In this document: positions 21,146-49,835 of the stretch, piece by piece
Position numbering within the stretch: position 1 is the stretch's first letter
Layout of the letters: each line of letters begins with the position of its first letter
Assembly (NCBI GenBank): GCA_021797995.1
Contig: JAJZYR010000001.1
Span: forward strand, 79,342-143,341
Origin: Candidatus Micrarchaeota archaeon
Lineage (GTDB): Archaea; Micrarchaeota; Micrarchaeia; Micrarchaeales; CABMGC01
Direction of reading: 5' to 3'
Length of the DNA stretch: 64,000 nucleotides
The notes under the pieces: model-generated
The model's input: the letters and a program-made list of their open reading frames with translations, nothing else
Databases searched by the model: none
Told to the model about the DNA's origin: nothing
Program-made: the position numbers and the translations under genes

Positions 21146-21231
21146 GAACTTCGCCTACTTATTGTGACCTTGAGCAGTTATTATAATTATGCCTGGGGTG
21201 ATATGCACATGCCCACGAGGGACAAGTGGAA

Positions 21232-21303
21232 TGGACTCTGCGGGATTTGAACCCGCAACCTCCTGCATGCCATGCAGGCGCGCTACCATTGCGCTAAGAG
21301 CCC
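21232..21303 (-). tRNA. tRNA-Ala (anticodon GGC)
   Basis: 72-nt cloverleaf. Acceptor GGGCTCT/AGAGTCC with G3:U70. D arm GCGC-AATGGTA-GCGC. Anticodon arm CCTGC-ATGGCAT-GCAGG. T arm GCGGG-TTCAAAT-CCCGC. Discriminator A, no encoded CCA. Confidence 0.9.
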
Positions 21304-21641: not shown

Positions 21642-21851
21642 TGGGTCTATCCTTATCCCGACCTCCTCCCTGGCCTCTCTTACCGCAGCCGCGCTGATAG
21701 CCTCGCCTTTCTCTAAGTGGCCGGATGGCATAGAGTACCATCCATCCCTGTAACCGGTGCCTTTGCGCCTTATGAGAAGTATCTTCCCCTCCTTTCTGAG
21801 TAGGATGAATACGCCAATCCTGTGGCCGCTCCGTATCTCATGTCCAGGCAT
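21642..21851 (-). pseudogene. Nudix hydrolase, N-terminal ~70 aa, fused in frame to the TnpB fragment
   Basis: The complete Nudix box GHLEKGEAISAAAVREAREEVGI is followed within about 5 codons by TnpB sequence. The rest of the Nudix fold is missing. Confidence 0.65.
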
Positions 21852-35046: not shown

Positions 35047-36423
35047 CTAAATTTGCAGTTTCTTCATCAGTTCCGAATAGGCAGCCCCGGCATACTCCTT
35101 CGGAATAGAATTTACGAATAGCATCGCCTTTCCAAGGCGTATATCCTTGCGCGCCTTCCTTCCCTTCCTTATCATATCCCTGAAAGCCTCCTCCGCGCTT
35201 CCGTATCTGTTTTTCTCCAGGGCGTATAGCTCGGTGCCTTTTATCAGCGCCCCGATCGCCCTGCTGTGCCCTTTAATGAAATTGCCAGCAGCCTGGCGCA
35301 TAAAGACGCTAGGGCCCTTGAGCAGCCGCGTCTCTATCCTGGTGCCAGGAAGCGCGAAGAGGAGAAATCCGTAATGCCCCGAGATCCACTGTGCTGAGAG
35401 GAAAACGCCATAGCCATGCCTAGAGAGCGTATCCGCCATTATTCCAGAAGTCTTCCTCAGCTGCGGCCAGACGACATCCTCGCTCTTGTCCGGAACCCTT
35501 AACTTTACCATATAAAGCGAGAGGCCCGAATCCTTGGTGAACTTTCTCAATAGCACCCCGGCTGCAGGAGAGGGAAATCCCTTTCCGAAGAACAGCTCTG
35601 CGCTCGGGTTATCAACGAATCTCCTTGCGACCATCACAAACCGGCTGAGAGACTCTGGAGAGACTCCTGCGCCGACATTCCTATTGCTGTCGACGGGATC
35701 TATGACTATAAACTTAGAATTGAATCTCTTTACAAGCTGCTGGTCACCCTGCCTGCCTCTTGTCTTGGGGTCAAGTATTACAGGCAGCTCAAACGTCGCC
35801 GCACTTTCCAGGAGCTTGATGAGGGATCCAAACTGGAGTATCAGGAGTTCGCATAGATACCCGGGAAATCCGCCAACCCTTACCTCTGCACCATAGATGT
35901 TATGCGCCTTCAGCAGATACTTCAGGAGCCTCGTCTCGTCCCTCTGCCTCTCGGTCATGTTGGAATTTATGAAATCAGTATGCAGAGGGGTCCTGTCTAC
36001 CGTCGTGCCCATTTCCTCAATGTTGTCTATCTTAAGTGCGGGGACAAGATCTATCCTGACTCCAAGCCCTTCAAGGTAAACGCGTATGTATGGGTGCTCC
36101 GCATATTTTATCTCGAACCTGTCGCGTTTTCCGCTTGCAAGCTTCTTCCCGTAGGCTAAGCCCTTCCTGACAAGCTCCTCCTTCCCGGTTTTCTTATGGA
36201 AGAGCATAAAGATGTCGATGTCCGCATCCCCCTTCAGGTTAGTCCCCCTGGCCACGGAACCAACGACCCTCAGTTCAACCCCCTTCTCGACAATTCCTGC
36301 CAGCCTCGATGTCACCGTATTTATATTGGCTATAGTGGCATTGGTTTCGGCCTGGCTGGGCTTTATGTCGGCAAGCACCCTGTGGAAGATCATTTCTGCC
36401 TTCCCTGCCTTTCGTGCTTCCAT
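35047..36423 (-). CDS. cca: CCA-adding enzyme (archaeal class I tRNA nucleotidyltransferase)
   Basis: GSVARGTNLKGDADIDIFMLF nucleotidyltransferase motif. Length and order are typical of archaeal Cca. An alternative start at MIFHRV is possible. Confidence 0.8.
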   Translation of the reverse strand: MEARKAGKAEMIFHRVLADIKPSQAETNATIANINTVTSRLAGIVEKGVELRVVGSVARGTNLKGDADIDIFMLFHKKTGKEELVRKGLAYGKKLASGKRDRFEIKYAEHPYIRVYLEGLGVRIDLVPALKIDNIEEMGTTVDRTPLHTDFINSNMTERQRDETRLLKYLLKAHNIYGAEVRVGGFPGYLCELLILQFGSLIKLLESAATFELPVILDPKTRGRQGDQQLVKRFNSKFIVIDPVDSNRNVGAGVSPESLSRFVMVARRFVDNPSAELFFGKGFPSPAAGVLLRKFTKDSGLSLYMVKLRVPDKSEDVVWPQLRKTSGIMADTLSRHGYGVFLSAQWISGHYGFLLFALPGTRIETRLLKGPSVFMRQAAGNFIKGHSRAIGALIKGTELYALEKNRYGSAEEAFRDMIRKGRKARKDIRLGKAMLFVNSIPKEYAGAAYSELMKKLQI

Positions 36424-36482: not shown

Positions 36483-36584
36483 GGGCTCGTAGCGCAGCAG
36501 TAGCGCGCATCGTTCGCAAGAAGCCTCTAAAAAAGGCTTCATCGAAAGACGATGAGGTCGCGGGTGCGATTCCCGCCGAGTCCA
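36483..36584 (+). tRNA. tRNA-Ala (anticodon CGC) with 30-nt intron
   Basis: Acceptor GGGCTCG/CGAGTCC with G3:U70. D arm GCGC-AGCAGTA-GCGC. Anticodon stem CATCG/CGATG with loop TTCGCA|A. Intron 36519-36548 sits at position 37/38 and contains the hairpin GAAGCCT-N7-AGGCTTC. T arm GCGGG-TGCGATT-CCCGC has a non-canonical loop. Discriminator A. Confidence 0.8.
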
Positions 36585-36675
36585 CATTTTTACTGCGGTA
36601 TTTGTTCTCTAGTAATGAACAATAGTGTTCATTGGTAATGAAAACATTTAAATATCTTAGCCTCTAAATGAAATC

Positions 36676-37896
36676 ATGATACTGAAGGAAACACTTAGGC
36701 AGATAGTCAAAGCTCAGAGGAAAGACTTAGAATCGTTCAGCTACGGAGTAGAAAGGGAAGAATTAGGTGAGATAAAACTCAATATGCATTACGCATTGAT
36801 ACTATCAGGTATAAGACGATGTGGTAAGAGTACTCTACTTCACCAATTGCTTAAAAAACTTCCAAATTTCTATTATCTAAACTTTGAGGACACACGGCTA
36901 GACAGCTTTCAAGTTGAGGATTTCGAAAAGTTAGATGAAATCTTCAAGGAAGATTACAGTGAATCCGAATACTATCTTTTCGATGAAATACAGAATATTG
37001 ATAAATGGGAGCTTTTTGTAAGATCCAGACTTGACAAACAGAAGAAATTTATTATTACAGGCTCTAACGCTTCGCTTTTAAGTAAGGAGCTTGGTACTAG
37101 ACTCACAGGCAGGCACATCAACATGGAACTGTTTCCATTCTCCTTTATGGAGTCGCTTTCTATGACTAAGGTAAAGGCAAGCGCAACTTCATTCTCAGAA
37201 TACTTAAGAAGTGGAGGGTTTCCAGAATATCTGAGATATAAAAAACAAGAAATACTGCGCGAGTTATTAACAGACATAATACAAAGGGATATTGTAGTAA
37301 GGCACAAATTGCGCGATTCTAAAACAGTGAAGACACTTGCGTTATATCTGCTTAGTAACACGGGCAACGAGTTTTCGTATAATAACCTTAAGAAGATGTT
37401 CAATCTGGGGTCAGTGAATACCGTAATAGCATTTGTTTCTTATTTTGAGGACAGCTACCTTCTATTTACTGTGCCAAAGTTTGATTACTCGCTTAAGAAA
37501 CAGATAGTTAATGCAAAAAAAATATATTCTATAGATAATGGTCTTTCGACCTCAAATTCGGCTTCGTTCTCTTCAGATTTAGGAAGAATGTTAGAGAATT
37601 CTGTATTCTTGCATCTTCGTAGGAGATATAAAGAAATATTCTACTTCAAAGGAAAAAGAGAATGCGATTTCTTAGTAAAGGAGCAAAACAAGATAAAAAT
37701 GGCAATACAGGTCTCGTATGAGCTAAACGAAGGAAATAAACAGAGAGAATTTGACGGACTTCTTGAAGCTATAAAAGAGTTTGATTTGGTAGAAGGATTA
37801 ATACTTACATTTGACCAAGAAGACAAATTTGAGATTGAGGGAAAACACATAATAGCAAAACCGGTTTGGAAATGGATGCTAGAAAGCAATTTGTAA
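36676..37896 (+). CDS. AAA+ ATPase, COG1373 type (AAA_14 + DUF4143), paralog 1
   Basis: GIRRCGKST Walker A, YYLFDEIQNIDKWE Walker B, ITGSNASLLSKELGTRLTGRH, C-terminal ECDF...IQV. AT-rich. TATA catttaaata lies about 25 nt upstream. Confidence 0.85.
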   Translation: MILKETLRQIVKAQRKDLESFSYGVEREELGEIKLNMHYALILSGIRRCGKSTLLHQLLKKLPNFYYLNFEDTRLDSFQVEDFEKLDEIFKEDYSESEYYLFDEIQNIDKWELFVRSRLDKQKKFIITGSNASLLSKELGTRLTGRHINMELFPFSFMESLSMTKVKASATSFSEYLRSGGFPEYLRYKKQEILRELLTDIIQRDIVVRHKLRDSKTVKTLALYLLSNTGNEFSYNNLKKMFNLGSVNTVIAFVSYFEDSYLLFTVPKFDYSLKKQIVNAKKIYSIDNGLSTSNSASFSSDLGRMLENSVFLHLRRRYKEIFYFKGKRECDFLVKEQNKIKMAIQVSYELNEGNKQREFDGLLEAIKEFDLVEGLILTFDQEDKFEIEGKHIIAKPVWKWMLESNL

Positions 37897-37995
37897 TGTA
37901 TGAAAGTGAAAAAGGAGGAACGAGATTAAAATTGTTTTATCTATGAGTCTGTGTTCAAAAGAAATATCTCCAATTTGGATTTTACCTAGTACACA

Positions 37996-38113
37996 AACCT
38001 TTTTGGAAAGGTTAATCGAAAACACTGGGTGCGAATACAGCCAGATTTGCACCGTGTCTGTTTATATTTCTAAATGCGGTATAATCTGTGTGCGAAGACA
38101 CAGATGTTCGCAT
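37996..38113 (+). repeat. conserved non-coding module R, copy 1
   Basis: Hairpin aaccttt-ttgg-aaaggtt (37996-38013). Hairpin 38023-38056. TATA tttatatt (38061-38068). gtgtgcgaa...ttcgcat hairpin. Homologous to 42857-43010 and 45542-45695. Confidence 0.8.
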
Positions 38114-38170
38114 TTCTGAAAATAAAATCTACGGTGGCTATATGGAAACGAAAGCTAGACGAAAAAGCTA

Positions 38171-38226
38171 CGACCCGCGTCCGCTTTGCAAGCGGAAGGT
38201 CGCTGGTGCGATCCACGCGGAGTCGA
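38171..38226 (+). pseudogene. tRNA-Ala(UGC)-like 3' fragment
   Basis: Anticodon arm TCCGC-TTTGCAA-GCGGA. Then AGGTC, an imperfect T arm with a TGCGATC loop, and GGAGTCG-A. There is no matching 5' acceptor strand or D arm. Confidence 0.6.
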
Positions 38227-38232
38227 TTCAAG

Positions 38233-39690
38233 CTACCTGTCCGGCTTCGTAGTGCCTGCGCCGTGAAGCTGTTGTACTCTGTCATCCTTCCCTCTTGCCA
38301 GCGATACTATCCCTGCAGCGACAAGTATGACTATCATTGCAACGAACGAGAACCGCATGCCCGTGATGAATGCGCTGGCAGTTGCCCCTGTCAGCTTTGC
38401 AGAGGTGCCTACGAAGATCTCAAACGCCTGCGCGCGCGGTATCGATGCAGCTGCTACCACGAAAACGACTATGAAGCTGCCCATCATGCCTATGGTAGAG
38501 AACATCCTGGACAATCCGGAAGCTATGCCGAACCTGCTCTGCTCTGCGTGCGCCATGATGGAGCTACTGTTTGCTGGCCAGAACATCGCGCCCCCTATAC
38601 CTGTAATCAGCGACCCTAGTATTACAAGGTAGACCGAGGAGTATGGATTCAGGAACATGTACACTATTATCCCAAGTATCTGGAGGGCTATGCCCAAGGT
38701 CGCCACAATCCTCGCGCCGTGCTTGTCCGAGATCCTGCCCATGTAAGGCGACAGCAGGCCGCTTACAACGTAGCCTGGCACAAGCAGGAGGGAAGCGAAG
38801 AGGGGTGTAAAGCCGAGGACCCCCTGAAGATACAGTATAAGCATGAAGACGACTCCCAGGAAGCCCAGGCCCTGAAGCATAGCAGCGAAAACTGAGTTCT
38901 TGAACACCCTGTTCGCGAACATGTCGAACGGTATCGTTGGGCTCTCAGATCTCCTCTCTATGAAGTAGAACGCTGCCAGGAGCAATACGCCTATGACCAC
39001 CATAACCGTGTTGAGTGCACCTGTGCCGGTTGAGGCATATCCTATGCCGCCGTACAGCAGCAGGGACAGGGCAACTGCCAACGTCACCATGCCCCCTATG
39101 TCCAGCTTGGCTGCGAACGTCTGCTTGTCGGATATGTACTTGACGCCCAATACCAATGCCACTATGCCTATTGGCACGTTTATGAAGAATATGTACTGCC
39201 AGCCTATGAAGGTTGTTATTATGCCGCCAAGTAGTATGCCTAGGAGCGCCCCTATATTGTATGCCATGGCGGTGAAGCCGAAAGCCCTTCCGATTCTGTG
39301 CCTTCCGAAGGTATCAGCTATTATTGCGCCGCTGGTTGCTGCGATCATCGCCCCTCCGAGCCCCTGCACTGCCCTAAATACGATAAGGAGAACGTCAGTA
39401 GGGGCTATGCCGCAAAGGAAAGAGGAAGCGGTAAACACGGCAAGCCCGGCTATGAAGATTTTGGCCCTGCCATATATGTCGCCCACCTTACCGAACTGTG
39501 TTGTGGCTACTGCACTGATGAGCATGTATATCAATATGACCCATATTATGGTAGTCAAGTTAGAATGAAGCGACGACACTATTGCAGGGAATGCCAACAG
39601 CACTATTGTTGAGTCTATGGCTGCCATCAGCACTGCTACGAGTATCACACCCAGTATTATGTCCTCGTGTACGTGTTTTGCAGCCAACAT
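38233..39690 (-). CDS. MFS transporter, DHA2 (EmrB/QacA-like, 14-TM) family
   Basis: 485 aa with about 14 hydrophobic segments. N-terminal LMAAIDSTIV and GKVGDIYGR motifs. Confidence 0.75.
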   Translation of the reverse strand: MLAAKHVHEDIILGVILVAVLMAAIDSTIVLLAFPAIVSSLHSNLTTIIWVILIYMLISAVATTQFGKVGDIYGRAKIFIAGLAVFTASSFLCGIAPTDVLLIVFRAVQGLGGAMIAATSGAIIADTFGRHRIGRAFGFTAMAYNIGALLGILLGGIITTFIGWQYIFFINVPIGIVALVLGVKYISDKQTFAAKLDIGGMVTLAVALSLLLYGGIGYASTGTGALNTVMVVIGVLLLAAFYFIERRSESPTIPFDMFANRVFKNSVFAAMLQGLGFLGVVFMLILYLQGVLGFTPLFASLLLVPGYVVSGLLSPYMGRISDKHGARIVATLGIALQILGIIVYMFLNPYSSVYLVILGSLITGIGGAMFWPANSSSIMAHAEQSRFGIASGLSRMFSTIGMMGSFIVVFVVAAASIPRAQAFEIFVGTSAKLTGATASAFITGMRFSFVAMIVILVAAGIVSLARGKDDRVQQLHGAGTTKPDR

Positions 39691-40022
39691 AGGAATCAGC
39701 GTATGATAACGGCATATCCACTGCCAATTACATACATGTAGCTGTTTTAACGGTCGAAGCTTAATAACCTTTATCAGTTACTTACGGAATACGCGTAACA
39801 ATATTCCACTATAAAAGATAAATTTACTTGCTTATAATGGCCCAATAAGGACGGCGTAAGCTTAAGGAAAGATTTCACTCCTTTTTCTTCATTGGTTATA
39901 TGTTTGGGGCCAGCTATGTGACATCCTCCGATGACTAAAGGTCGTTGGCTTCCCCTGCATTTGCAGGGTATGTTCTCAATTCCTCAAGCGGCTTTTCGAT
40001 TCCTGTTGAATCGCAGAGGCTA

Positions 40023-40655
40023 CTAATATGGGCTGGTGAGCTTGCCGGCGTCTGCAGATTCTTTGTGCCGCTTTATGAAATTCAGGACGACTGTAGCAGT
40101 ATGCTTGTCGTATCTCTCAAGGTATTTGTGGATCTTTTTTCTGCTTATCTTCTTTAGTAGCTCGCTGTAATCTTGAATCGGCAATTTCACCCTATAGTAG
40201 AACAGGTCTATAAGCGTCTTTTCTGGTTCAGATACAGGCACCTCCAGTGTCCCGTATTTGACTATGCCAAATCCGAAGAAATACTTTGCTGGCATGTGGT
40301 GGACGAAGACCGTTTCCTTTATATCGCCAAATATGTGTATCGAAGAGGCGCGGACCTTCCTGATGGTAATGATATCAGGCCTAGAGTTCTGTGTCCAAAG
40401 CTCCCTTATAGTTAGCGCGGACAGCAATCCATAGTAGAATGGACTGTATGCAAAGCCTGCCACCATGCTATCTTTTTTGAATGCATAGGCCCCTTTTCTA
40501 ACCGTATACAGCTTTCCGCTGCTCTTCATATACGCGATGATCCTTGTAAGGTTTGCCGTTTTCAGCTTTTTGTTTTTGAAGTATAGCTTAAGGTCCCTGC
40601 GCGTGAACACAGGGTAGTCTGAAAAATGATTAATTATGTCCTTTACTATTGTCAC
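40023..40655 (-). CDS. AbiEi-like antitoxin / COG5340-type wHTH regulator (tentative)
   Basis: 210 aa. The N-terminal pattern FTRRDL...L..L..SGKLYTVRKGAYAF resembles AbiEi wHTH domains. It overlaps the upstream nucleotidyltransferase gene by 26 nt. Confidence 0.5.
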   Translation of the reverse strand: MTIVKDIINHFSDYPVFTRRDLKLYFKNKKLKTANLTRIIAYMKSSGKLYTVRKGAYAFKKDSMVAGFAYSPFYYGLLSALTIRELWTQNSRPDIITIRKVRASSIHIFGDIKETVFVHHMPAKYFFGFGIVKYGTLEVPVSEPEKTLIDLFYYRVKLPIQDYSELLKKISRKKIHKYLERYDKHTATVVLNFIKRHKESADAGKLTSPY

Positions 40656-41328
40656 TCAACCACTTCTTTATCGTGTTCACCATCAGGTCGAATGTCGGCG
40701 GCAGGCCTGCGATTATCAGATGCCCTAAGCTGCCCATATTCGGCGGCGGATTTCCGTCTATTTTTCCAATTAATGCCTTTAGCCGTTTGACTGACGTTGC
40801 ATCAACCCTGTTGATCAGGGAAATCAGATAGTAAATATCATACAGATCCTGCACTTCAGTCTGCTTGAATCTCTCCACACTATTCAATTTATCTTCATAG
40901 GCGGCCATCTTTTCATTGAGCAGTTCCAATGGACTTAGAGATAGGACAACGATTTTGCTGCCGTCAATTTTCATGTAATCGAATTCGGTGCCCTTTTTGT
41001 ATTTGAAGTTGATGTCGATTTTCATCTTTGTGTTGGATTCTACCAAAAAGTGCATCGTGTCTGTTGCCTTTTCATATCCCTTTTCTTTCATCAGAAATCC
41101 TGAATCTTTCAAGAAATCTGAGAGCTCCTTGTAGTGCCGCATCTTTTCTTCGTTTGTCTTAGCATCGAGATAGAAGTCTATGTCTCTAGAGAACCTGTTT
41201 CCCCCATGGCATCTCCATATCGAAGTGCCGCCGTGAAACACCAGGCCGTTGTATCTGCTATACAGGAGTTCTACTAGAACGTCCTCCAGTTTTGCTTTCT
41301 CCATCTGCGCCTGATCTCTTATATCCAT
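40630..41328 (-). CDS. nucleotidyltransferase AbiEii/AbiGii toxin family (DUF1814)
   Basis: FHGGTSIWRCHGGNRFSRDIDFYL matches the GGTAL...R.S.DIDF N-terminal motif of the family. 232 aa. Confidence 0.65.
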   Translation of the reverse strand: MDIRDQAQMEKAKLEDVLVELLYSRYNGLVFHGGTSIWRCHGGNRFSRDIDFYLDAKTNEEKMRHYKELSDFLKDSGFLMKEKGYEKATDTMHFLVESNTKMKIDINFKYKKGTEFDYMKIDGSKIVVLSLSPLELLNEKMAAYEDKLNSVERFKQTEVQDLYDIYYLISLINRVDATSVKRLKALIGKIDGNPPPNMGSLGHLIIAGLPPTFDLMVNTIKKWLSDNSKGHN

Positions 41329-41402
41329 AGAACCATAACTACATTTTATTACAATTTTATGTAATAATATGCACTTATATATTTAAATACCTTGCTGTTG
41401 AA

Positions 41403-41499
41403 GGCAGTGTGGCGGTAGTGCTCATCGTTCGCAAGAAGCCTCTAAAAAAGGCTTCATCGAAAGAGGATGAGTTCGCGGGTTCGAATCCCGCGGAGTCTA
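41403..41499 (+). pseudogene. tRNA-Ala(CGC)-derived pseudo-tRNA retaining the intron
   Basis: A 42-nt run (41423-41464) is identical to tRNA 36508-36549, covering the anticodon stem-loop and the whole intron. The T arm is canonical (GCGGG-TTCGAAT-CCCGC). The 5' acceptor strand and D stem do not pair, and the anticodon stem has one mismatch. Confidence 0.7.
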
Positions 41500-41577
41500 C
41501 TTACTCTGATTAGGTCGTTTGGATATTATATAGTATAGTAACAAAGATTTAAATAACATTATATAGTATACTATATC

Positions 41578-42852
41578 ATGGATAAAGAAACGCTCAGGCT
41601 CGTAATAGTTGACCAGAGAAAGAGCCTCGAGGAAAAGCTTAGAGACAAAAACATAATCGTTCGGGATGCAAGTAAGTCGATAGTGCTGAAAGCCCCGACC
41701 GCCTTCATAGTCCTCGGGGTCAGGCGCTCTGGCAAGTCTACGCTTTCGGAGCAGTTGTTTATTGATGACAAATTTGGTTATATAAATTTTGATGACGAGA
41801 GGCTCCTAGGCGCAACTAGAGATGACCTTAATATCATACTTCAGATATTCTATGAGTTGTACGGATCCGATCTTGGCAATATAATACTCGATGAGATACA
41901 ATTAGTACCTGGTTGGGAACCGTTTGTGAGCAGGCTTAGGGATACAAAGAAGGTCATAGTCACTGGGTCTAGCTCTAAACTGCTTAGTGGCGAGCTTTCG
42001 ACCAGGCTGACAGGCAGGCACATCGACCTCCTGTTGTTTCCGTTCAGCTTTAATGAGTTTCTTACGTATAAACACTGGAACATACCTAAGGCTTTCTCTA
42101 CTACCGATAGGGCAGAGGTTGTAAGATTACTCGATGAGTATATAAGCTCTGGGGGATTCCCGGAGCAGTTTACCTTGGGCAGGCAGATAATCAGGAACAT
42201 TTACAATGATATAATAACAAAAGACATCGTAATAAGGCATAAGATAAAGTACATAGACGACTTAAGGCAGGCAGCGCGGTTTTTGGTATCAAACAGCTCA
42301 AAAGAATTTACATACTCTTCTCTTAAAGGTGTGACTGGGGCCAAGAGCATTATAACCCTATCGAATTGGGTGAGGTACCTTGAAGAGGCATATCTTATCT
42401 TCAAAATAGAGCGGTTTTCATATAAACTGAAGCAAACAATCCTCGCGCCTAAAAAGATATACTGCGTCGATGTTGGTATAATAAACGGGATAAGCCCGGA
42501 GCCGACGGGCAACAAAGGCAGATTGATGGAGAATACTGTTGCAATGGAACTGATAAAGGGCAGCAAAAATGTCGGATTTGAGGTATTTTACTGGAAGGAC
42601 CATCAAGGGAGGGAGGTAGATTTTATTATTAAGGACGACAGAAAGGTCGCTAAGCTAATCCAGGCTACTTATGCAACAAGCCGTGAAGCAATTGAAGATA
42701 GGGAAATAAAGTCGCTAGTAATAGCTTCTAACGAACTGAGATGCAATAATCTCTTCATAGTCACGTGGGATTATGAGGGCAGTATCGTGATAGAAGGAAA
42801 GAAAATAGCACTTGTTCCATTATGGAAGTGGCTGCTGAATAAAGAATTATGA
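41578..42852 (+). CDS. AAA+ ATPase, COG1373 type (AAA_14 + DUF4143), paralog 2
   Basis: GVRRSGKST, NIILDEIQLVPGWE, VTGSSSKLLSGELSTRLTGRH, C-terminal REVDF...IQA. TATA atttaaataac lies about 25 nt upstream. Confidence 0.85.
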   Translation: MDKETLRLVIVDQRKSLEEKLRDKNIIVRDASKSIVLKAPTAFIVLGVRRSGKSTLSEQLFIDDKFGYINFDDERLLGATRDDLNIILQIFYELYGSDLGNIILDEIQLVPGWEPFVSRLRDTKKVIVTGSSSKLLSGELSTRLTGRHIDLLLFPFSFNEFLTYKHWNIPKAFSTTDRAEVVRLLDEYISSGGFPEQFTLGRQIIRNIYNDIITKDIVIRHKIKYIDDLRQAARFLVSNSSKEFTYSSLKGVTGAKSIITLSNWVRYLEEAYLIFKIERFSYKLKQTILAPKKIYCVDVGIINGISPEPTGNKGRLMENTVAMELIKGSKNVGFEVFYWKDHQGREVDFIIKDDRKVAKLIQATYATSREAIEDREIKSLVIASNELRCNNLFIVTWDYEGSIVIEGKKIALVPLWKWLLNKEL

Positions 42853-42856
42853 CAAT

Positions 42857-43010
42857 GCTTTACGAAAAGCTTTACCAAAGAGTCTGGGTGCGTAACCTTT
42901 TTGAAAAGGTTGAACCAGAACACTGGGTGCAGTTTTGTCGTTATTTGCACCGTGTCTCTTTATATTTCTGAAATGCCATAGTCTGTGTGCGGATACACAG
43001 ATGCGCGCAT
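42857..43010 (+). repeat. conserved non-coding module R, copy 2
   Basis: Starts 5 nt after the ATPase-2 stop. Hairpins at 42894-42911 and 42921-42954. TATA at 42959-42966. By hand alignment there are 3 mismatches in about 117 nt versus copy 3. Confidence 0.85.
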
Positions 43011-43061
43011 TTTGAAATATGATCTACTGTGGCTTGAATGGCTAGAAGAAATGACGGTAAA

Positions 43062-43119
43062 AGCTTAGAGCGCGTCGTTCGCAACGATGAGATTGCGAGT
43101 TCAAATCCTGCCGAGTCCA
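43062..43119 (+). pseudogene. intron-less tRNA-Ala(CGC)-derived 3' fragment
   Basis: CGTCG-TTCGCAA-CGATG anticodon arm joined exactly at the exon-exon junction of the 36483 tRNA. T arm GCGAG-TTCAAAT-CCTGC. CGAGTCC-A. The 5' acceptor strand and most of the D arm are absent. Confidence 0.65.
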
Positions 43120-43230
43120 TTTTATGTTTACGAGTGAAGCAGGTGCGATGGACTTGTCTTTAGTCTTTGGTAGAAATAGATGTTCTATATTCTAGAATAT
43201 CCAGAAGATTTATATATGTATATCATCACA

Positions 43231-43248
43231 TATATCACTAGTGATATA
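43231..43248. promoter_or_regulatory. perfect 18-bp palindrome, candidate PadR operator
   Basis: tatatcact|agtgatata lies between the TATA-like gatttatatatg (43207-43218) and ATG 43249. Confidence 0.5.
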
Positions 43249-43479
43249 ATGAGAAACGTAGAAAACGTAGAGAAAGAAGACTGTGGATGCAGCTGCAGAT
43301 GCGGAGGTGGAAGCAGAGGAATGCGCAGGCATATGGGCTTCGGTGATATGGACTTGACAAATGACGAAACAGCTGAACGTCTGAGATACTACAAAGATGA
43401 CCTCACGGAAGAAATAAAGCTCATAGATAAACGGATAGCGGATCTCAAGGCAGAAGCCACAAGGAAAGGCAGCAAATAG
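43249..43479 (+). CDS. small Cys/Gly/Arg-rich plus coiled-coil protein (DUF5320-like, tentative)
   Basis: MRNVENVEKEDCGCSCRCGGGSRGMRRHMGFG followed by a heptad-like tail (LTEEIKLIDKRIADLKAEA). ATG 43249 lies directly after an 18-bp palindrome. Its stop overlaps the PadR start. Confidence 0.55.
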   Translation: MRNVENVEKEDCGCSCRCGGGSRGMRRHMGFGDMDLTNDETAERLRYYKDDLTEEIKLIDKRIADLKAEATRKGSK

Positions 43480-43859
43480 TGCAGGCTATGCCTATAAATT
43501 CAGGGTACTGCAACTGCGGTCCGTTTAGGGTGAGCGTGATCCCCCACGGGCTTCTCAAGCCGTATATTCTCAGGCTGATATCAGAGAGGCCTATGTACGG
43601 CTTTGAGATAATGGAGCAAATATTCGAGAAGACAGGCGGCATGTGGCGGCCCGGTCCTGCAGCCACGTATACTACGCTTGAGTGGTTGGAGCGGAATGGA
43701 TATATAAAATCGCTGAATGCAGTGCAGAGGTCCGAAAAGCAGAGGAAACAGTATAAGATAACTGAAAAAGGCCTCACTGCGCTCACAGACTATGCCGAAA
43801 CGTCAAAAATGATAGCGAACCGCATGAAAAGGTTCGGATTGCTGTATGGTGGCCTTTAA
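43479..43859 (+). CDS. PadR-family transcriptional regulator
   Basis: LLKPYILRLISERPMYGFEIMEQI...GPAATYTTLEWLERNGYI is a PadR wHTH. The start is either GTG 43479 (TAGTG overlap) or ATG 43488. Confidence 0.8.
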   Translation: MQAMPINSGYCNCGPFRVSVIPHGLLKPYILRLISERPMYGFEIMEQIFEKTGGMWRPGPAATYTTLEWLERNGYIKSLNAVQRSEKQRKQYKITEKGLTALTDYAETSKMIANRMKRFGLLYGGL

Positions 43860-44223
43860 TGATCGTTATCCCAATTACTACAAAATATATACTGATGATA
43901 GTATAACGGCAGTCAGATTTGCTGTAGCAGTTTAAAGTCAAAATCTCTTACTTCATCTACCCCGCGTACTACTGACGGTTGATGTTCTTTATAGTCAACT
44001 GCCAATAATTCATCCAGCATTTTACTGCCTAAAAGACCAAATTTTACCTGGGGATACGCGTATAACAAATTCCTGCCTTCCACGTAATCGACAATATACT
44101 AATGCTTATCTTACAGAACAGCACAAAAGGTGCAGAGGAGCAGAGTAATGATCAGCCGTCTTTCATTTACGTACAGTATACTAAACGTAAAGCATATAAA
44201 CATGTATAACATACTATACAGAT

Positions 44224-45522
44224 ATGGCTAGCGTTGATGACTTTAAGTATGTGCTTACCCTCTGGAAAGAGATGGAGCTACCAGAAGTCATAGACAGGAA
44301 GATTACTTTAGATTTAGATGCAGACAAAATAATAGTCATTGCTGGTGTAAGACGCTCTGGTAAAACGAGTTTAATGTTTCAGCACATTAAAGAGCTAATG
44401 AGAAGAAAGGTGGGAAAGGACAATATTATTTATGTTAATTTTGAGAATGAGCGCCTAATAGCTACTAAAGCAACAGACATGGATAATCTCATGGTTGCGC
44501 ATTCGCAAATATTCACTCCTGTAGAAGGAATTGTGTATTTGTTCTTGGATGAGATCCAGAACGTAGAGAACTGGGATAAATGGATAAGGAAGATATATGA
44601 CACCAAGAAGTATAGAATTATAATAACCGGATCGTCATCGCAATTACTTAGCAGCGAGATAGCTACGGCGCTTGCAGGCAGGAACCTTTCTTATACTGTT
44701 TATCCATTCTCTTTTAGCGAGATACTGAAATCGAAGGGTATAACCACCGAAATTAGTAGCATAAAATTTTCTTCAAAGAAAGGCATTGTACTGAAAGCGC
44801 TAGATGAATTTCTCGAATATGGCTCTTTTCCAGAGGTCATACTTTCAAATGATGCTACAAGAAAAATGGATCTTTTATCAGCGTACTTTGATGCAATATT
44901 CTTTAGGGACATAATAAAGCGATATAACCTGAGGGAAATGGGTGCATTAAACATTTTCCTTAAGATACTTGCTAGTAACTATTCGACTTATTTCAGCTCA
45001 ACAAAAGCCCAGAATTATTTCAATAGTATGGATTTTAAGATTAGCAGGGTTACAATTCTTAACTTTTTAGAATACTCTAAATCTGTATTCTTTGCTGAAA
45101 CCTTGGAGCAATACTTAAAAAGTCCAAGAAAGCGATTTGCTAGACAGATAAAGAGTTATATTGTTGACATTGGGCTATCAAGATTGTTTACAGAGATAGA
45201 TAAAGGTAGGGCACTTGAAAATGCGGTGTTTATTGAGCTGCTTAGAAGGAGAAAGGCACCAGATAATATCTATTATCTGAAATTGAAATCAGGAAAGGAG
45301 ATTGACTTTATTATAGGTTGGAAACCTACTAAACTAATACAGGTATGCTATAAATTTTCTAGCAACGATGTAAAAAAAAGAGAAACTCTGGCACTAGTTG
45401 AAGCTGCAAAAACACTTAGACTTAAAGAAGGGACCATAATTACTTATGATTATAGCGGCAGTGAGGTTATAAATGGAATAAAGATATTACACACACCCTT
45501 CTGGGAATGGGCCCTTACGTAG
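44224..45522 (+). CDS. AAA+ ATPase, COG1373 type (AAA_14 + DUF4143), paralog 3
   Basis: GVRRSGKTS, YLFLDEIQNVENWD, ITGSSSQLLSSEIATALAGRN, C-terminal KEIDF...IQV. TATA gcatataaac lies about 25 nt upstream. Confidence 0.85.
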   Translation: MASVDDFKYVLTLWKEMELPEVIDRKITLDLDADKIIVIAGVRRSGKTSLMFQHIKELMRRKVGKDNIIYVNFENERLIATKATDMDNLMVAHSQIFTPVEGIVYLFLDEIQNVENWDKWIRKIYDTKKYRIIITGSSSQLLSSEIATALAGRNLSYTVYPFSFSEILKSKGITTEISSIKFSSKKGIVLKALDEFLEYGSFPEVILSNDATRKMDLLSAYFDAIFFRDIIKRYNLREMGALNIFLKILASNYSTYFSSTKAQNYFNSMDFKISRVTILNFLEYSKSVFFAETLEQYLKSPRKRFARQIKSYIVDIGLSRLFTEIDKGRALENAVFIELLRRRKAPDNIYYLKLKSGKEIDFIIGWKPTKLIQVCYKFSSNDVKKRETLALVEAAKTLRLKEGTIITYDYSGSEVINGIKILHTPFWEWALT

Positions 45523-45541
45523 TAACGAGCAACTTACAAGA

Positions 45542-45695
45542 CCTTTTTACGAAAAGCTTTACCAAAGAGTATGGGTGCGTAACCTTTTTGAAAAGGTTGA
45601 ACCAGAACACTGGGTGCAGTTTTGTCGTTATTTGCACCGTGTCTGTTTATATTTCTAAATGCGGTATAATCCGTGTGCGAATCGGATGTTCGCAT
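45542..45695 (+). repeat. conserved non-coding module R, copy 3
   Basis: Hairpins at 45581-45598 and 45608-45641. TATA at 45646-45653. gtgtgcgaa-tcggatg-ttcgcat hairpin. Confidence 0.85.
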
Positions 45696-45757
45696 CCATC
45701 CAATGGCTGAAGTGCGTGGACTCTCTGCTATTCATTTTGTAAGACTGTAGGCGCGTG

Positions 45758-46423
45758 TTACCTTGATATTACGAGCCCGAAATGCCAATGCCCGGGCTTG
45801 AATCTCTTCTTGATACTGAATCCAGGGAACCATGCAAGATACTCCTCCTCGGACATCCGCAGGTTATCTGGCGGGCCTGAATGCTGCTTGTCGCGCATGC
45901 CGGCACCTTTTCTCCAGTCAACGATTATTATACGCCCTCCAGGTTTAAGTATCCTTATTACTTCTCCAGCAGCAGCGCCCTTCCTGTCCATATCGTGGAA
46001 TGAATTCGCCATGAAAACTGCGTCTGCAGATGAGTCGGGCAGGGAGATCCTTGAAGCATCCTCCTTCAGGAACCTTACATTTTCTCCATGGACCGTCTTG
46101 CGCGCCGCAGATATCATGGCCTTGCTGCTGTCTATGCAGTAGAGCCTTGATGCGAATGGTTTCAGCTTTTTGGCATAGAACCCAGGGCCACAGCCTATAT
46201 CCGCTATAACCTGCTTCTCAGGCCCGAAGATGTCCTTGAGGAAGGCTGTATTCTCGAACTTTTCTCTGCCATTAAGCAGGCGCTGTGCTGCGGATTTGTC
46301 CCATGAGTGGTGATGCGCTTCCATTATTACACGTTTACTGGGAGACTGCCGAACAAACGATCTCCCATAGGGAGTCTGGCTTGCTATGCGCCTGCCGGAT
46401 GCACATTTGCCTGTATTCTCCAC
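45758..46423 (-). CDS. class I SAM-dependent methyltransferase (Methyltransf_11-like)
   Basis: VIADIGCGPGFYA motif I and IIIVDW post-motif. The track start is GTG 46423, with tctatataac about 25 nt upstream. An internal ATG at 46324 (MEAHHHSWDK) is an alternative start. Confidence 0.75.
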   Translation of the reverse strand: MENTGKCASGRRIASQTPYGRSFVRQSPSKRVIMEAHHHSWDKSAAQRLLNGREKFENTAFLKDIFGPEKQVIADIGCGPGFYAKKLKPFASRLYCIDSSKAMISAARKTVHGENVRFLKEDASRISLPDSSADAVFMANSFHDMDRKGAAAGEVIRILKPGGRIIIVDWRKGAGMRDKQHSGPPDNLRMSEEEYLAWFPGFSIKKRFKPGHWHFGLVISR

Positions 46424-46503
46424 GCCAGACCTCTGTTGTCAGTTATATAGAATGGCCGAGAAGCCTTAAATATCTTTAAATTAGACTGTTCTATCGGGTT
46501 CTT

Positions 46504-46568
46504 GGCCCAGTAGTAGAACGATTCCATTCGCAACGGGGAGGCCGCTGGCATGATTCCAGCAGAGTCGG
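46504..46568 (+). pseudogene. degenerate intron-less tRNA-Ala(CGC)-like fragment
   Basis: ATTCGCAA loop context. Perfect T stem GCTGG-CATGATT-CCAGC. AGAGTCG-G. Anticodon stem and acceptor stem cannot form. A TATA-like ctttaaatta lies upstream. Confidence 0.5.
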
Positions 46569-46601
46569 TTTTATCTTATTCAGTACAAACGTGGCGGTTG
46601 C

Positions 46602-47111
46602 ATGAAGAAGAAATTTAAGCTGGGCTTATTCATCGGCAGGTTCCAGCCCTTCCACAAAGGCCACATGTATGCGCTGGAGTTCTCCGCAGCAATGTGCAAG
46701 GAGCTGGTCATAGGGATTGGAAGCGCAGGGGAGTCTGGTACTGGAAGGAACCCCCTTTCGTCAAAGGCCCGCATAAGGATCATCAGGGCTGCGCTGGATG
46801 GGGCATCCCTCGATACAAGGTGCATACGCTTCATTGAGATACCAGACTTCAAGGATGATGAGAAGTGGTTCCGGTACATAACCAGGAAGGAACCAGGCAT
46901 AGAGGCCGTCTTCTCGCATCACTGGCTGGTGAAGAGGATATTTAGGGAGCATGGGCTTGCTGTAATAATGCCCCCATGGCACAAGAGGAGCTCGCTTGTG
47001 GCAACCAAAATCAGGAGGATGATAAAGGAGAAGAGGAATTGGAGGGGCAGGGTTCCTGCCGGCGCGATAAAGGAGATATCTTTATATGAGAAAATTATTA
47101 GAGGCGCATAG
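46602..47111 (+). CDS. nadM: nicotinamide-nucleotide adenylyltransferase (archaeal NMNAT)
   Basis: GLFIGRFQPFHKGH nucleotidyltransferase (H/T)xGH motif. 169 aa. Confidence 0.8.
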   Translation: MKKKFKLGLFIGRFQPFHKGHMYALEFSAAMCKELVIGIGSAGESGTGRNPLSSKARIRIIRAALDGASLDTRCIRFIEIPDFKDDEKWFRYITRKEPGIEAVFSHHWLVKRIFREHGLAVIMPPWHKRSSLVATKIRRMIKEKRNWRGRVPAGAIKEISLYEKIIRGA

Positions 47112-47428
47112 ACCCCGCTGCTGCTTTTTAGCCATGCAGAAGGCATAGGCTGGCTGTGCACCAGGGCTTTTATCTGATGCCGGAAAATGGCGAATGCCTT
47201 AACAACATGCGAGTGGAAGAATGCGCCATTTATGGGCGGATGGGAGCAGACCGCATCGCACAGGAAGTATAATGCAGATAAATATATATAAGAGATGAGC
47301 AAAAAGGTATGCAATGGAACTGATAAGTGCCCACAAATTCAGAATTTGTCCGGAGCGCGGCGCCTTCATGCGGGAAGAAGTCACTAAATGCAGAGCCACA
47401 CTTTCAGATAGCCATTGAAGCTGAGATA

Positions 47429-48646
47429 ATGGGAAGGGTACTAATCGTAGGCGCAGGAGGAGTCGGGAGGGTGGTAGCCCACAAGTGCGCGCAGATTCCT
47501 GAAGTCTTTGCTGAGATTATGTTAGCCAGCCGCAACGTCTCAAAGTGCGAAGAAATAAAGAGGGAGATTAAGGCAAAGACTGGGCGGGAGATAAAGGTTG
47601 CTGAAGTGGACGCCGATGCTGTTCCAGAGCTTGTTGCATTGATAAAGAAGTTTAATCCGGAACTCGTCGTCAATGTTGCCCTTCCTTATCAGGATCTCAA
47701 GATAATGGATGCGTGCCTTGAAGCCGGTGTAAATTACCTTGATACTGCAAACTACGAATCACCAGATGTTGCGCATTTTGAGTACAGCCAGCAATGGGCT
47801 TACCGGGATAAATTCAGACGGAATGGACTTATGGCAGTCCTTGGGTGCGGATTTGATCCAGGAGTCTCAAATCTCTTCTGCTCGTACGCCCTAAAACACC
47901 TCTTTGACGAGATAAATTATGTCGATATTCTTGATTGCAATGCAGGAAGCCATGGGTATCCGTTTGCAACCAATTTCAATCCTGAGATAAACATTCGCGA
48001 GGTGACGCAGGCAGTAAGGTATTGGGTGGACGGGAAGGTGATAGAAACCCCTCCCATTCTTGATCCAAAGAGCATTCATTTCAGCTTTGACTATCCTGTT
48101 GTAGGGCCCATGGAGAGCTATCTCCTCTACCACGAGGAACTTGAGTCGCTTGCCGCGAACATAAAGGGCCTGAAGAGAATAAGGTTCTGGATGACCTTCT
48201 CTGAAAGTTACCTGACGCACCTCAGGGTCCTCCGGAATATCGGAATGACAAGAATTGACGGAGTCGATTATGAGGGCAAGAAGGTTGTTCCGCTCAAGTT
48301 TCTCAAGTTGTTGCTTCCTGATCCGGCCACGCTTGGGACAAATTATACCGGAAAGACGGTCATTGGGGATATAATAACAGGATTAAAGGACGGAAAGAGG
48401 AAGTCTGTTTACATTTACAACATATGCGACCATGCAGAGTCGTTCAGGGAGGTCGGAGCGCAGGCAGTCTCATATACTACAGGGGTGCCTGCAATGATCG
48501 GGGCCATGATGATGCTTAAGGGCATTTGGAAGGACGCAGGGGTATTCAACATAGAGCAGCTTGACCCTGATGCATTTATGGAGGCGCTGAACAGGTACGG
48601 GCTTCCGTGGCAGCAGGTTGAGTTCACGGGGAAACTGCCTGATTAG
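47429..48646 (+). CDS. carboxy(nor)spermidine dehydrogenase (saccharopine dehydrogenase family)
   Basis: MGRVLIVGAGGVGRVVAHKCAQ Rossmann N-terminus, about 405 aa, immediately upstream of an nspC-type decarboxylase. ATG 47429 is preferred over the track start. Confidence 0.7.
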   Translation: MGRVLIVGAGGVGRVVAHKCAQIPEVFAEIMLASRNVSKCEEIKREIKAKTGREIKVAEVDADAVPELVALIKKFNPELVVNVALPYQDLKIMDACLEAGVNYLDTANYESPDVAHFEYSQQWAYRDKFRRNGLMAVLGCGFDPGVSNLFCSYALKHLFDEINYVDILDCNAGSHGYPFATNFNPEINIREVTQAVRYWVDGKVIETPPILDPKSIHFSFDYPVVGPMESYLLYHEELESLAANIKGLKRIRFWMTFSESYLTHLRVLRNIGMTRIDGVDYEGKKVVPLKFLKLLLPDPATLGTNYTGKTVIGDIITGLKDGKRKSVYIYNICDHAESFREVGAQAVSYTTGVPAMIGAMMMLKGIWKDAGVFNIEQLDPDAFMEALNRYGLPWQQVEFTGKLPD

Positions 48647-48656
48647 GTGCGCGTTC

Positions 48657-49835
48657 ATGGAAGGCCAATCTTATGAAGCTGCCATTAAAGACTTCCCGGA
48701 TAAGATGACCAGCAGCGTAGAAACCCCCTGTTTTATCGTAAGCGAGGGAGCCCTGAGGAGAAACCTTGAGATTCTTGCCTCCGTAAAGAGACGCACTGGG
48801 GCGAAGGTCCTCCTTGCGCTGAAGGCATTTGCAATGTTCAGCACATTTCCCCTTATTAGGAAATATCTTGATGGCGTATGCGCAAGCGGGCCTATTGAGG
48901 CACAGCTCGGCTTCGAGGAGTTCGGAAAGGAGGTGCATACGTTTGCCCCCGCATATTCTGAAGCGGACATGAAGAGGGTGATAAGATACTCGGACACCAT
49001 AATCTTCAACTCCATTGCCCAGTGGAAGAGGCACCGCGGGGCGATAGAGAGGAGCGGGAAGAGGATTGAGGTAGGGCTGCGCATCAATCCAGGATACTCC
49101 GAGGTGGAAAACAGGCTGTATAATCCCTCAGCTCCGGGATCGCGGCTCGGCATGGCGGCTTCGGATCTTGATGGTGATGACCTTGACGGCATCGACGGAC
49201 TTCACTTCCATTCACTATGCGAGCAGAACTCCGATGTGCTCGTGCGTGTACTGAGGTCTTTCGAAAAGCGCTGCGGGAAATACATACCGCGCATGAAATG
49301 GATCAATTTCGGCGGTGGGCACCACATAACAAGGAAGGGCTACGACACTGGACTGCTCGTCAGGACGGTAAACGACTTCAGGAGGAGGTACGGGGTGCAG
49401 GTGAACATAGAACCGGGGGAGGCTGTGGTCCTGAATGCAGGGGTATTGGTAGCCACTGTACTTGACATCGTCCACAACAGAGTCGACACGGCAATCCTTG
49501 ATACGTCTGCTGAGGCACACATGCCTGATGTCCTTGCAGGCCCTTATCGCCCGGAGGTTATAGGGGCAGGAAGGCCTGGCATGCGGAAACACACTTACAG
49601 GCTTGGGGGCCTTACGTGTCTTGCCGGCGATGTTATTGGGGATTACTCATTTTCAAAGCCGCTCAAAACCGGGGATCGCATAGTATTTCTTGACATGGCA
49701 CATTATTCGATGGTCAAGACAACCACCTTTAACGGAATACGGCATCCGTCGCTTGCACTATACAATCCAGGCACGGGGAAGGTCAGGGTGGTAAAGAAAT
49801 TTGGGTATGATGCGTATAAGGAGAGGCTTTCCTGA
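48657..49835 (+). CDS. nspC: carboxy(nor)spermidine decarboxylase
   Basis: ALKAFAMFSTFPLIRKYLDGVCASGPIEAQLG matches the NspC-type PLP-lysine region of alanine racemase-fold decarboxylases. The start is ATG 48657 or 48705. Confidence 0.7.
   Translation: MEGQSYEAAIKDFPDKMTSSVETPCFIVSEGALRRNLEILASVKRRTGAKVLLALKAFAMFSTFPLIRKYLDGVCASGPIEAQLGFEEFGKEVHTFAPAYSEADMKRVIRYSDTIIFNSIAQWKRHRGAIERSGKRIEVGLRINPGYSEVENRLYNPSAPGSRLGMAASDLDGDDLDGIDGLHFHSLCEQNSDVLVRVLRSFEKRCGKYIPRMKWINFGGGHHITRKGYDTGLLVRTVNDFRRRYGVQVNIEPGEAVVLNAGVLVATVLDIVHNRVDTAILDTSAEAHMPDVLAGPYRPEVIGAGRPGMRKHTYRLGGLTCLAGDVIGDYSFSKPLKTGDRIVFLDMAHYSMVKTTTFNGIRHPSLALYNPGTGKVRVVKKFGYDAYKERLS

Follow-up and report, generated by a model that had tools for sequence, protein, structure and literature searches.

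Type I, or SSV-type, integrases carry the attachment site attP inside their own open reading frame (ORF) and use the 3' part of a tRNA gene as their target. After integration, one part of the split gene, int(C), lies behind the intact tRNA, and the promoter and the other part, int(N), lie at the opposite end of the element. Trapped elements form decaying arrays at such sites, and integrase halves are shared or exchanged among related elements. She et al. 2001 is said to be a further source on these integrases and on gene capture. Described examples are SSV1/2, pXQ1, pTN3, and pT26-2 (Badel et al. 2020, PMC7253208; PMC8371274). According to a review, the known suicidal integrases all belong to PF16795, derive from a single event, and occur mainly in hyperthermophilic archaea (PMC8371274). 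The subject here is an island in a Candidatus Micrarchaeota archaeon (contig JAJZYR010000001.1, positions 79,342 to 143,341; this whole stretch of 64,000 nt is called the window, and loci or contigs compared with it carry L-numbers). The island contains two ~1.7-kb units, each with a gene for a COG1373-type ATPase, a conserved module named R, and a 3' fragment of a tRNA-Ala gene. These units are very probably remnants of mobile elements that were inserted successively in tRNA-Ala and have lost int(C), with R representing the promoter and int(N) of a self-splitting integrase.

The integrase in question is encoded at the same locus in sibling strains, and the tyrosine recombinase motifs GLRIGE, HSLRH, and TMTYI are visible in its sequence. 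It appears to share with the SSV type the position of attP, the tRNA target, the placement of the two gene parts, the arrays of trapped elements, and the exchange of integrase halves. The window units themselves hold int(N) remnants alone, not both halves. Unlike the SSV type, the Micrarchaeota integrase matches PF00589 (44-47 bits in L023, L024, L033, and L034), with no PF16795 match at E<=1, and its best solved relatives by sequence are XerA (4e-6) and IntI4; SSV1 Int is unmatched. Further differences are that the host is an acid-mine DPANN archaeon and not a hyperthermophile, that int(N) ahead of the att site is very short (~11 codons), and that the integrase gene has the same sense as the tRNA. 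Judged by sequence, the system works like the SSV type and is not a member of the PF16795 family. In the literature library that was searched, no paper linked suicidal integrases with DPANN archaea.

In the proposed mechanism, small mobile elements would have inserted themselves site-specifically, one after another, behind tRNA-Ala(CGC) and so have filled the island. The tyrosine integrase of these elements would have attP within the 5' part of its own gene, and recombination with the 3' part of the tRNA would split that gene. The int(C) part would land directly behind the intact tRNA at attL, and the promoter, leader, and ~11 codons of int(N) would land at the far end (attR), from where they read into the tRNA fragment that was displaced. 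In the circular form, R would supply the promoter TTTATATTT, the leader, a ribosome-binding motif, and the start codons; the att site would be translated, and int(C) would come next. The COG1373 ATPase would be the gene just upstream of the integrase promoter in many such elements. Units 1 and 2 and a third element would have lost int(C) and most of their cargo and kept the ATPase, R, int(N), and attR, with the R copy of the third element (R3) lacking both the ATG and the tRNA fragment. A tblastn search of the window with the PF00589-type int(C) and with a PF16795 integrase found no int(C) (best E 0.17), and the units would therefore be int(C)-less derivatives, unable to move alone. At most, they could be excised or re-inserted by the integrase of a related element. 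The ATPase-nuclease gene is probably useful or addictive, which would be why the remnants were kept. The att repeats, the strain polymorphism with its exact borders, the frame continuity of int(N) and int(C), the coding signal ahead of the first Met, and the absence of int(C) are taken as established.

Sibling strains differ at this locus. The CCA-enzyme protein encoded next to the tRNA in the window is identical in sequence on 22 contigs that differ in island content. The tRNA is followed by ATP1, the ATPase gene of unit 1, in L025, L031, and L032, the same as in the window, and by a tyrosine integrase gene on the same strand in L023 and L026. Past the integrase, L023 encodes a DUF87/HerA-type ATPase, a TPR protein, and a 1034-aa Type ISP restriction enzyme. 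The identity of L023 to the window ends exactly at 36584, the last base of the tRNA, where the insert begins. The other end of this insert is found in L014 and L015, where the restriction gene is followed by a copy of R (in L014 with 94% identity to R1) and by a tRNA-Ala(TGC) fragment whose intron differs. Identity of L014 to the window resumes at 36555, within the T-arm. These exact borders define the occupied and the empty site of a ~12-kb element, the right end of which is R plus a tRNA fragment. The crossover took place in or next to CCCGCCGAGTCCA, the att core at 36572-36584 inside the live tRNA-Ala(CGC). The att fragment of the 12-kb element (L014:4930-5008) contains another intron, related but distinct, with which the int(N) frame is preserved (36 nt). 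Many assemblies (L016-L019 and L027-L032) break at or near the tRNA/att site or in ATP1, which agrees with heterogeneity among strains at this site.

In L023, the integrase frame is open in the sense direction from inside the tRNA into the catalytic domain (...DDEVAGAIPAES-IKLLGKKF... / ...DDEVAGAIPAES-IKLLGKKFYQEAEENSCDKPASESGCDCGF...). There is no in-frame ATG, GTG, or TTG inside the tRNA, and the first Met of int(C) lies 72 codons past the att site. This 72-codon stretch is conserved among divergent integrase homologues, and in close pairs its synonymous and non-synonymous codon changes number 9/7, 7/5, and 8/8. Because synonymous changes equal or exceed non-synonymous ones, the stretch is coding. 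The 3' part of the tRNA translates as VAGAIPAES in the int(C) frame, and this is the frame of the ORFs that begin in R (...KRKVAGAIHAES, ...NDEVAGSNPAES). In five divergent R copies, the distance from the ATG to GAGTC is 78, 75, 78, 75, and 114 nt, all multiples of 3, and the R-borne ATG shares the int(C) frame in 5/6 copies. A GGTG motif stands 5-7 nt upstream of this conserved ATG, at the 3' end of R in every copy. The ORF passes through the tRNA fragment and stops after 36-41 codons in the window units. Since R has the frame of int(C) and closes an integrase-bearing element, it comprises the promoter, the structured leader (~50 nt), and the start (~11 codons) of a tyrosine integrase gene that has been split, and the tRNA fragments represent attR. 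The promoter in R is presumably the active one.

Elements of other content end in the same way. R also closes elements that end in a Type ISP restriction enzyme (L014) or in a small ORF (L034). L034 is a compact 3.3-kb example consisting of the tRNA, int(C), five small ORFs, R, and a tRNA fragment, followed by host genes. L024 is an intermediate or decaying form: behind its tRNA come ~110 nt of int(C), then an ATPase gene of an unrelated kind, a tRNA fragment, and a full int(C). Among the 120 best integrase homologues, the called N-terminus is the translated 3' end of a tRNA, either tRNA-Ala or another tRNA, in at least 26, and the arrangement is therefore a property of the integrase family.

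The motif CTGGGTGCR occurs at 4 sites in the window (38025, 42884, 42923, and 45610; 0.85 expected), all within R. L023, L024, L033, and L034 have a pair of the same motif, 42 nt apart, in the 5' coding region of int(C), where it encodes 'SGC' in a Cys-rich N-terminal region, and the R core and this int(C) coding stretch align. The repeats may be arm-type protein-binding sites flanking the core. When one R pattern was scanned against GTDB genomes, matches were found only in the same species and in two chance bacterial cases, and other R patterns had no match in IMG/VR and JGI metagenomes.

The island spans 36483-46568 (~10 kb, low GC content) downstream of a single live intron-bearing tRNA-Ala(CGC). 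It holds three COG1373 ATPase genes, an R module after each, and four decayed tRNA-Ala copies, making five tRNA-Ala copies with the live gene. The units have a GC content of 0.36-0.42 compared to 0.52-0.53 for the host (genome ~53%) and are therefore foreign. Past 46568, the GC content is back at 0.52. Contig JAJZJB010000021.1, from a Candidatus Micrarchaeota metagenome-assembled genome, is 99.7% identical to window positions 41206-49205. The coordinates of all features are listed in Table 1.

Table 1. Features of the tRNA-Ala(CGC) island and its left flank, in window coordinates.
Feature	Position	Strand	Basis
CCA-adding enzyme; host gene, left flank of island, synteny anchor	35047..36423	-	Pfam tRNA_NucTransf2, CAA_C, NTP_transf_2
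Live tRNA-Ala(CGC); attB/attL of the array	36483..36584	+	Rfam RF00005, 52.9 bits
Unit 1 P' side: ~15-nt shared post-att stretch, then ATP1 promoter with TTTAAATA at 36647-36654; leaderless mRNA	36585..36675	+	sequence read
ATP1, COG1373-type ATPase, 406 aa, AAA_14 + DUF4143	36676..37896	+	Pfam 5e-36 / 2.8e-22
R1 core; upstream region and promoter of integrase gene	37994..38141	+	R-copy alignment, motif statistics
int(N) remnant 1, ORF METKARRKSYDPRPLCKRKVAGAIHAES... crossing tRNA fragment; ATG at 38142	38142..38252	+	same frame as L023 int(C); ATG-to-GAGTC 78 nt
Unit 1 attR: tRNA-Ala 3' fragment, TGC anticodon loop, intronless, T-stem broken	38170..38226	+	sequence comparison
MFS transporter, host-like GC 0.528; end 7 nt from unit 1 attR	38233..39690	-	Pfam MFS_1 4.8e-49
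AbiEi/AbiEii toxin-antitoxin pair, overlapping genes; island cargo	40023..41328	-	Pfam
Pseudo-tRNA-Ala(CGC), old hybrid att site, D-arm to 3' end	41412..41499	+	below Rfam threshold
ATP2, COG1373-type ATPase, 424 aa	41578..42852	+	Pfam
R2: CTGGGTGCR at 42884 and 42923, palindrome 42894-42911, TATA 42959-42967, leader hairpin 42987-43009	42859..43037	+	
int(N) remnant 2, MARRNDGKSLERVVRNDEIASSNPAES... crossing att fragment; ATG at 43038	43038..43163	+	ATG-to-GAGTC 75 nt, in frame
Unit 2 attR = element 3 left border: intronless CGC-type tRNA-Ala 3' fragment	43062..43119	+	Rfam 21.9 bits, sub-threshold
Element 3 cargo: 99-aa ORF and PadR-family regulator	43180..43859	+	Pfam PadR 3e-18
ATP3, COG1373-type ATPase, 432 aa	44224..45522	+	Pfam
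R3, cut off after leader hairpin, without int(N) ATG and without tRNA fragment	45546..45700	+	alignment
SAM methyltransferase, host-like GC 0.512	45758..46423	-	Pfam
Decayed near-full-length intronless tRNA-Ala(CGC)-like copy, island right end	46495..46568	+	sequence comparison

An earlier sequence-only reading of this DNA had described two units of the same architecture, and both are present at its coordinates (unit 1, 36483-38226; unit 2, 41403-43119). It had both units open with an intron-bearing tRNA. This holds for unit 1, which begins with the live gene, whereas unit 2 begins with a pseudo-tRNA that has no 5' acceptor strand. What it called a spacer of 55-60 nt ahead of the tRNA fragment is in fact the GGTG motif and the conserved ATG (38142 and 43038) that opens the ORF through the fragment. 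Its proposal that the R promoter reads across the tRNA fragment stands; the reading goes on, in complete elements, to int(C) and not, as had been suggested, to the ATPase gene. Nor is R an accessory of the ATPase, because R closes the COG1373-free elements L014 and L034.

The repeats of the units are far beyond chance. The 27-nt R core occurs 3 times in the window (0.00 expected), R2 and R3 are 97% identical over 114 nt, and the R and tRNA copies have BLAST E-values of 1e-23 to 1e-53. The R copies are far more conserved than the ATPases, which are 32-40% identical to one another (ATP1 and ATP2, 40%; ATP1 and ATP3, 32%). R1 contains the palindrome AACCTTTTTGGAAAGGTT (37996-38013), CTGGGTGCG at 38025, a GGTGC...GCACC hairpin, the TATA box (38061-38069), a leader hairpin (38090-38112), and a GGTGG Shine-Dalgarno-like motif. 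The live tRNA has a 30-nt intron (36520-36549) and retains the G3:U70 pair, and 91 nt separate it from ATP1. In addition to its missing acceptor strand, the pseudo-tRNA of unit 2 has a G31-G39 mismatch and a foreign T-loop and acceptor. Its intron (41435-41464) is identical to that of the live tRNA at 30/30 positions, and the flanking exon has diverged. The spacer from the pseudo-tRNA to ATP2 is 78 nt with TTTAAATA at 41548, and the ATP2 promoter (41528-41577) has ATATAGTAT repeats around TTTAAATA.

Following the tRNA fragment of unit 2 is a decayed stretch, TTTACGAGTGAAGCAGGTGCGATGG, that resembles the start of int(C) and has post-att similarity to L011 and L008. This stretch, and likewise those after the L011 and L008 fragments, may be a decayed int(C) start, and the fragment would therefore serve as attR of unit 2 and at once as the left border of the third element (43120-45700, 2.6 kb).

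Homologues of ATP2 with 99% to ~50% identity are found in acid-mine-type archaea, namely Micrarchaeota, Parvarchaeum, Thermoplasmatota, and Marsarchaeota. In the loci of closer homologues (L004-7, L011, and L020), R follows the ATPase gene directly. L011 is syntenic with the window and has the CCA enzyme, an intronless tRNA-Ala(CGC), a peptidase, an ORF, the ATPase, R, a TGC-type fragment like that of unit 1, and Fic. R also occurs without an ATPase gene ahead of it, upstream of an AbiE pair in L004 and in the order R, fragment, ATPase in L008. The orthologues with 72% identity (L035-38) and 67% identity (Thermoplasmatota, L039-40) sit among ordinary genes, and no R, tRNA-Ala fragment, repeat borders, or integrase were found in their neighborhoods. 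R and the att sites are therefore not part of the ATPase gene.

The promoter of ATP2 is conserved in L020, L008, L004, L011, L035, and L039. This ATP2-type promoter, with ATATAGTAT direct repeats on both sides of TTTAAATAA directly before a leaderless ATG, is kept across phyla (window 41528-41577; L020:1390-1444; L008:3705-3759; L035:5945-6000; L039:5945-6000). It looks like an operator and is possibly autoregulatory.

Several points weigh against the proposed mechanism. The gap from the att site to the ATPase promoter is 77-91 nt in units 1 and 2, and the same junction is found in L004 and L020. So neat a junction, formed twice, is unlikely to result from random deletion and favors a mobile mini-element over decay in situ. 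All three R copies of the window follow a COG1373 gene, an association that the integrase model alone leaves unexplained. The host-like GC content of the MFS and methyltransferase genes indicates that the array is not a plain chain of foreign DNA. The int(N) ATG of L034 is one base out of frame (67 nt to GAGTC). No uninterrupted integrase gene was found, in which R, int(N), att, and int(C) would adjoin one another on an episome, and IMG/VR holds no relatives; the longest integrase homologues have their start within a tRNA or where a contig ends, and contigs are broken at the tRNA. Lastly, int(C) might be made from its first internal Met as a 241-aa protein with the entire catalytic domain, in which case the split would not be inactivating.

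In bacteria, cis-mobilizable elements (CIMEs) are att-flanked elements without recombination genes that accrete in tandem at tRNA/att sites. Like CIMEs, the window units are short, att-bounded, and without integrase, lie in tandem with integrase-bearing relatives, and could be mobilized by these. Unlike CIMEs, they belong to an archaeal split-integrase system, and units 1 and 2 retain the integrase promoter and int(N); the layout alone is known. [quoted passage not shown] The ATPase-R-att units could accordingly be non-autonomous mini-elements of the CIME or satellite type that are moved as circles (att, ~80 nt, ATPase, R, int(N), att) by the integrase of a co-resident element. This is a less likely explanation. 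The homologous 77-78-nt junction of the ATP2 type stands behind three different left neighbors, namely the AbiE module (window), a PF16795 integrase pseudogene (L020), and a different arm (L004); however, these shared junctions could be due to vertical inheritance in related species (87-89% protein identity). The ATP1 and ATP2 lineages, at 40% identity, share the minimal layout, and integrase-bearing relatives with a 94%-identical R are present in the same population. Excision of split-integrase elements by a related, newly arriving integrase is reported (PMC8371274). For a unit as such, neither an empty site nor a circle junction nor a second location in the genome was seen. On their P' side, the units have none of the paired CTGGGTGCR motifs found in int(C), and recombination at the att fragments of unit 1 is doubtful because these are decayed (broken T-stem, acceptor changes). 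Decay in situ with selective retention of a useful or addictive ATPase and mini-elements served in trans account equally well for the COG1373 gene ahead of each R copy in the window and for the conserved ATP2-type junction.

A bolder version of the mini-element idea appears quite doubtful. It supposes a second, independently evolved Xer-like self-splitting system outside the SSV family, at home in non-thermophilic DPANN archaea, in which the ATPase-R-int(N) units would be functional, trans-mobilizable mini-replicons. The Orc1/Cdc6-like COG1373 ATPase-nuclease would serve their maintenance or replication, and the stored promoters and int(N) halves would rebuild a chimeric integrase upon each new insertion at their att site.

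To our knowledge, no function is known for the COG1373/AAA_14 + DUF4143 family. All three window proteins carry both Pfam domains (AAA_14, 1e-33 to 8e-39; DUF4143, 2e-17 to 5e-26), which places them in this family. They differ in that here the gene is the last one before an integrase promoter, and in the Q-x-T/V motif of the third strand. A search for solved structures by sequence found none for the ATPase. The AlphaFold2 model of ATP2 (predicted local distance difference test score, pLDDT, 90.7) has an overall fold like Orc1/Cdc6 and STAND ATPases, with a winged helix. The C-terminal 139 residues (286-424), modeled alone, have a pLDDT >90 over the core, and the best Foldseek match of this model is McrC (E 3e-4, TMq 0.51), followed by Can2, EcoO109I, Hjc, MspJI, and NucS. 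The C-terminus thus models as a PD-(D/E)xK fold with an alpha-beta-beta-beta-alpha-beta core. In an alignment of 57 sequences, E318, K340, D348, F349, Q362, and E376 are invariant, and the third strand has Q362-x-T/V in place of the canonical (D/E)-x-K. The sequence-only reading had noted a C-terminal E-x-D-F ... I-Q-(V/A) pattern and, tentatively, a PD-(D/E)xK-like C-terminus with a replaced E-x-K. The pattern is real, the replacement is the Q362-x-T/V motif, and the likeness is borne out by the model and its Foldseek match together with the listing of DUF4143 as PD-(D/E)XK family no. 100 (Steczkiewicz et al. 2012, PMC3424549).

That reading went further and, speculatively, took the units for minimal selfish cassettes that target tRNA-Ala and are moved either in trans or by the ATPase and putative nuclease that they encode; in the autonomous form of this idea, R would be a promoter or recognition element. 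Of this, the att repeats at a strain-variable hot spot remain, and mobilization driven by the ATPase does not. The modeled PD-(D/E)xK fold and the predicted likeness of the N-terminal part to Orc1/Cdc6 and STAND ATPases with a winged helix would suit such a role, as would the constant pairing of R with a COG1373 gene in the window (3/3) and the occurrence of 56-67% identical ATP2 homologues in other archaeal phyla, which suggests horizontal transfer. However, R also ends COG1373-free elements (L014 and L034), in which it leads on to a tyrosine integrase, the borders duplicate the 3' end of a tRNA as att sites in the manner classical for tyrosine recombinases, and the putative active site is Q362-x-T and not the canonical (D/E)xK. 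A lack of R and tRNA fragments at COG1373 paralogs had been named beforehand as evidence against the cassettes. When this was applied to orthologues, the 72% and 67% ATP2 orthologues were found to have no R, tRNA-Ala fragment, or repeat borders. The cassette explanation is highly improbable and largely refuted already; the ATPase is cargo and not a recombinase, and nothing points to a recombinase role.

DPANN and Thermoproteales genomes are known for split tRNAs. That R drives a small RNA with a tRNA half (a split or trans-spliced tRNA-Ala), or is a structured non-coding RNA, can hardly be right: its order of TATA box, hairpins, and tRNA 3' portion would fit, but the fragments are degenerate (broken T-stems or anticodon stems) with mixed TGC and CGC anticodons, neither a matching 5' half nor a complementary leader is present, the fragment is absent from R3 and the L004 copy, an Rfam scan (gathering threshold and E<=5) has no match in R, the hairpins show no compensatory changes, and the conserved ATG, GGTG, and preserved frame indicate an mRNA. 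A split tRNA-Ala as such was ruled out, the fragments being degenerate and unpaired. Integron-like cassettes, prompted by the R copies flanking the AbiE pair in L004, were likewise ruled out because R is the 5' region of an integrase gene; no IntI-type gene was found in the window or the comparison loci, and R is a promoter-containing module of ~180 nt plus a tRNA fragment, not attC.

The units themselves are ordinary remnants of integrated elements, and the novelty is the integrase system behind them. An apparent ATPase transposon becomes a well-understood case of integrative elements captured at a tRNA gene, and the self-splitting strategy is extended to a PF00589 Xer-like lineage and to mesophilic or acidophilic DPANN archaea. 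A second origin, if true, would show that locating attP within the integrase gene is a solution reached repeatedly and no accident of history. Gene callers give these integrases as 240-aa proteins or as ORFs starting inside tRNA genes, and recognizing R and int(N) gives the correct borders of integrated elements in Micrarchaeota genomes. The repeated position of COG1373 ATPase-nucleases as the last gene before the integrase promoter provides a concrete context for a very large uncharacterized family.

Other elements also use or adjoin these sites. In L020:535-1360, and also in L021 and L022, an SSV-type PF16795 integrase pseudogene with a stop and a frameshift is read in antisense through a tRNA-Ala fragment of the TGC type, and this fragment lies 77 nt upstream of an 89%-identical ATP2 homologue. 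In this community, tRNA-Ala is therefore used by two unrelated split-integrase systems. R and the tRNA fragment were considered as the int(N) of this L020 integrase and rejected, as that gene is oriented antisense to the tRNA and nothing in the window resembles it. In L004:2612-2962, a called 134-aa ORF without a Pfam match has an int(N)-type start (METKAR...) and diverges at the expected tRNA fragment; it may be a chimeric gene under the integrase promoter. A conserved module of ~65 nt, GCACTTGTATRATAATGCTTATC...TGCAG, ends in the 13-nt tRNA 3' end GCCGCCGAGTCCA (L004:1000-1070 and L008:5040-5108). It is located upstream of the ATPase gene in L004 and downstream in L008 and may be an arm of another att-using element. 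The AbiEi/AbiEii pair accompanies these islands, by the pseudo-tRNA in the window (40023-41328) and between two R copies in L004 (3054-4365).

The window has one further tRNA gene. ARAGORN calls tRNA-Ala(GGC) at 21231-21304 as the sole tRNA, and Rfam adds the one at 36483-36584. A second low-GC island (0.38-0.44; 18000-21230) lies directly downstream of tRNA-Ala(GGC), which is on the minus strand. A search of this island for an integrase or att/tRNA repeats found none. Its genes encode a PglZ/phosphodiesterase-like protein, Fic, and a 139-aa ORF. Adjoining the same tRNA is a 178-aa ORF (21315-21851, minus strand) with an odd pairing of domains, a NUDIX domain (residues 12-73) and a Cas12f1-like/TnpB TNB zinc finger (62-115).

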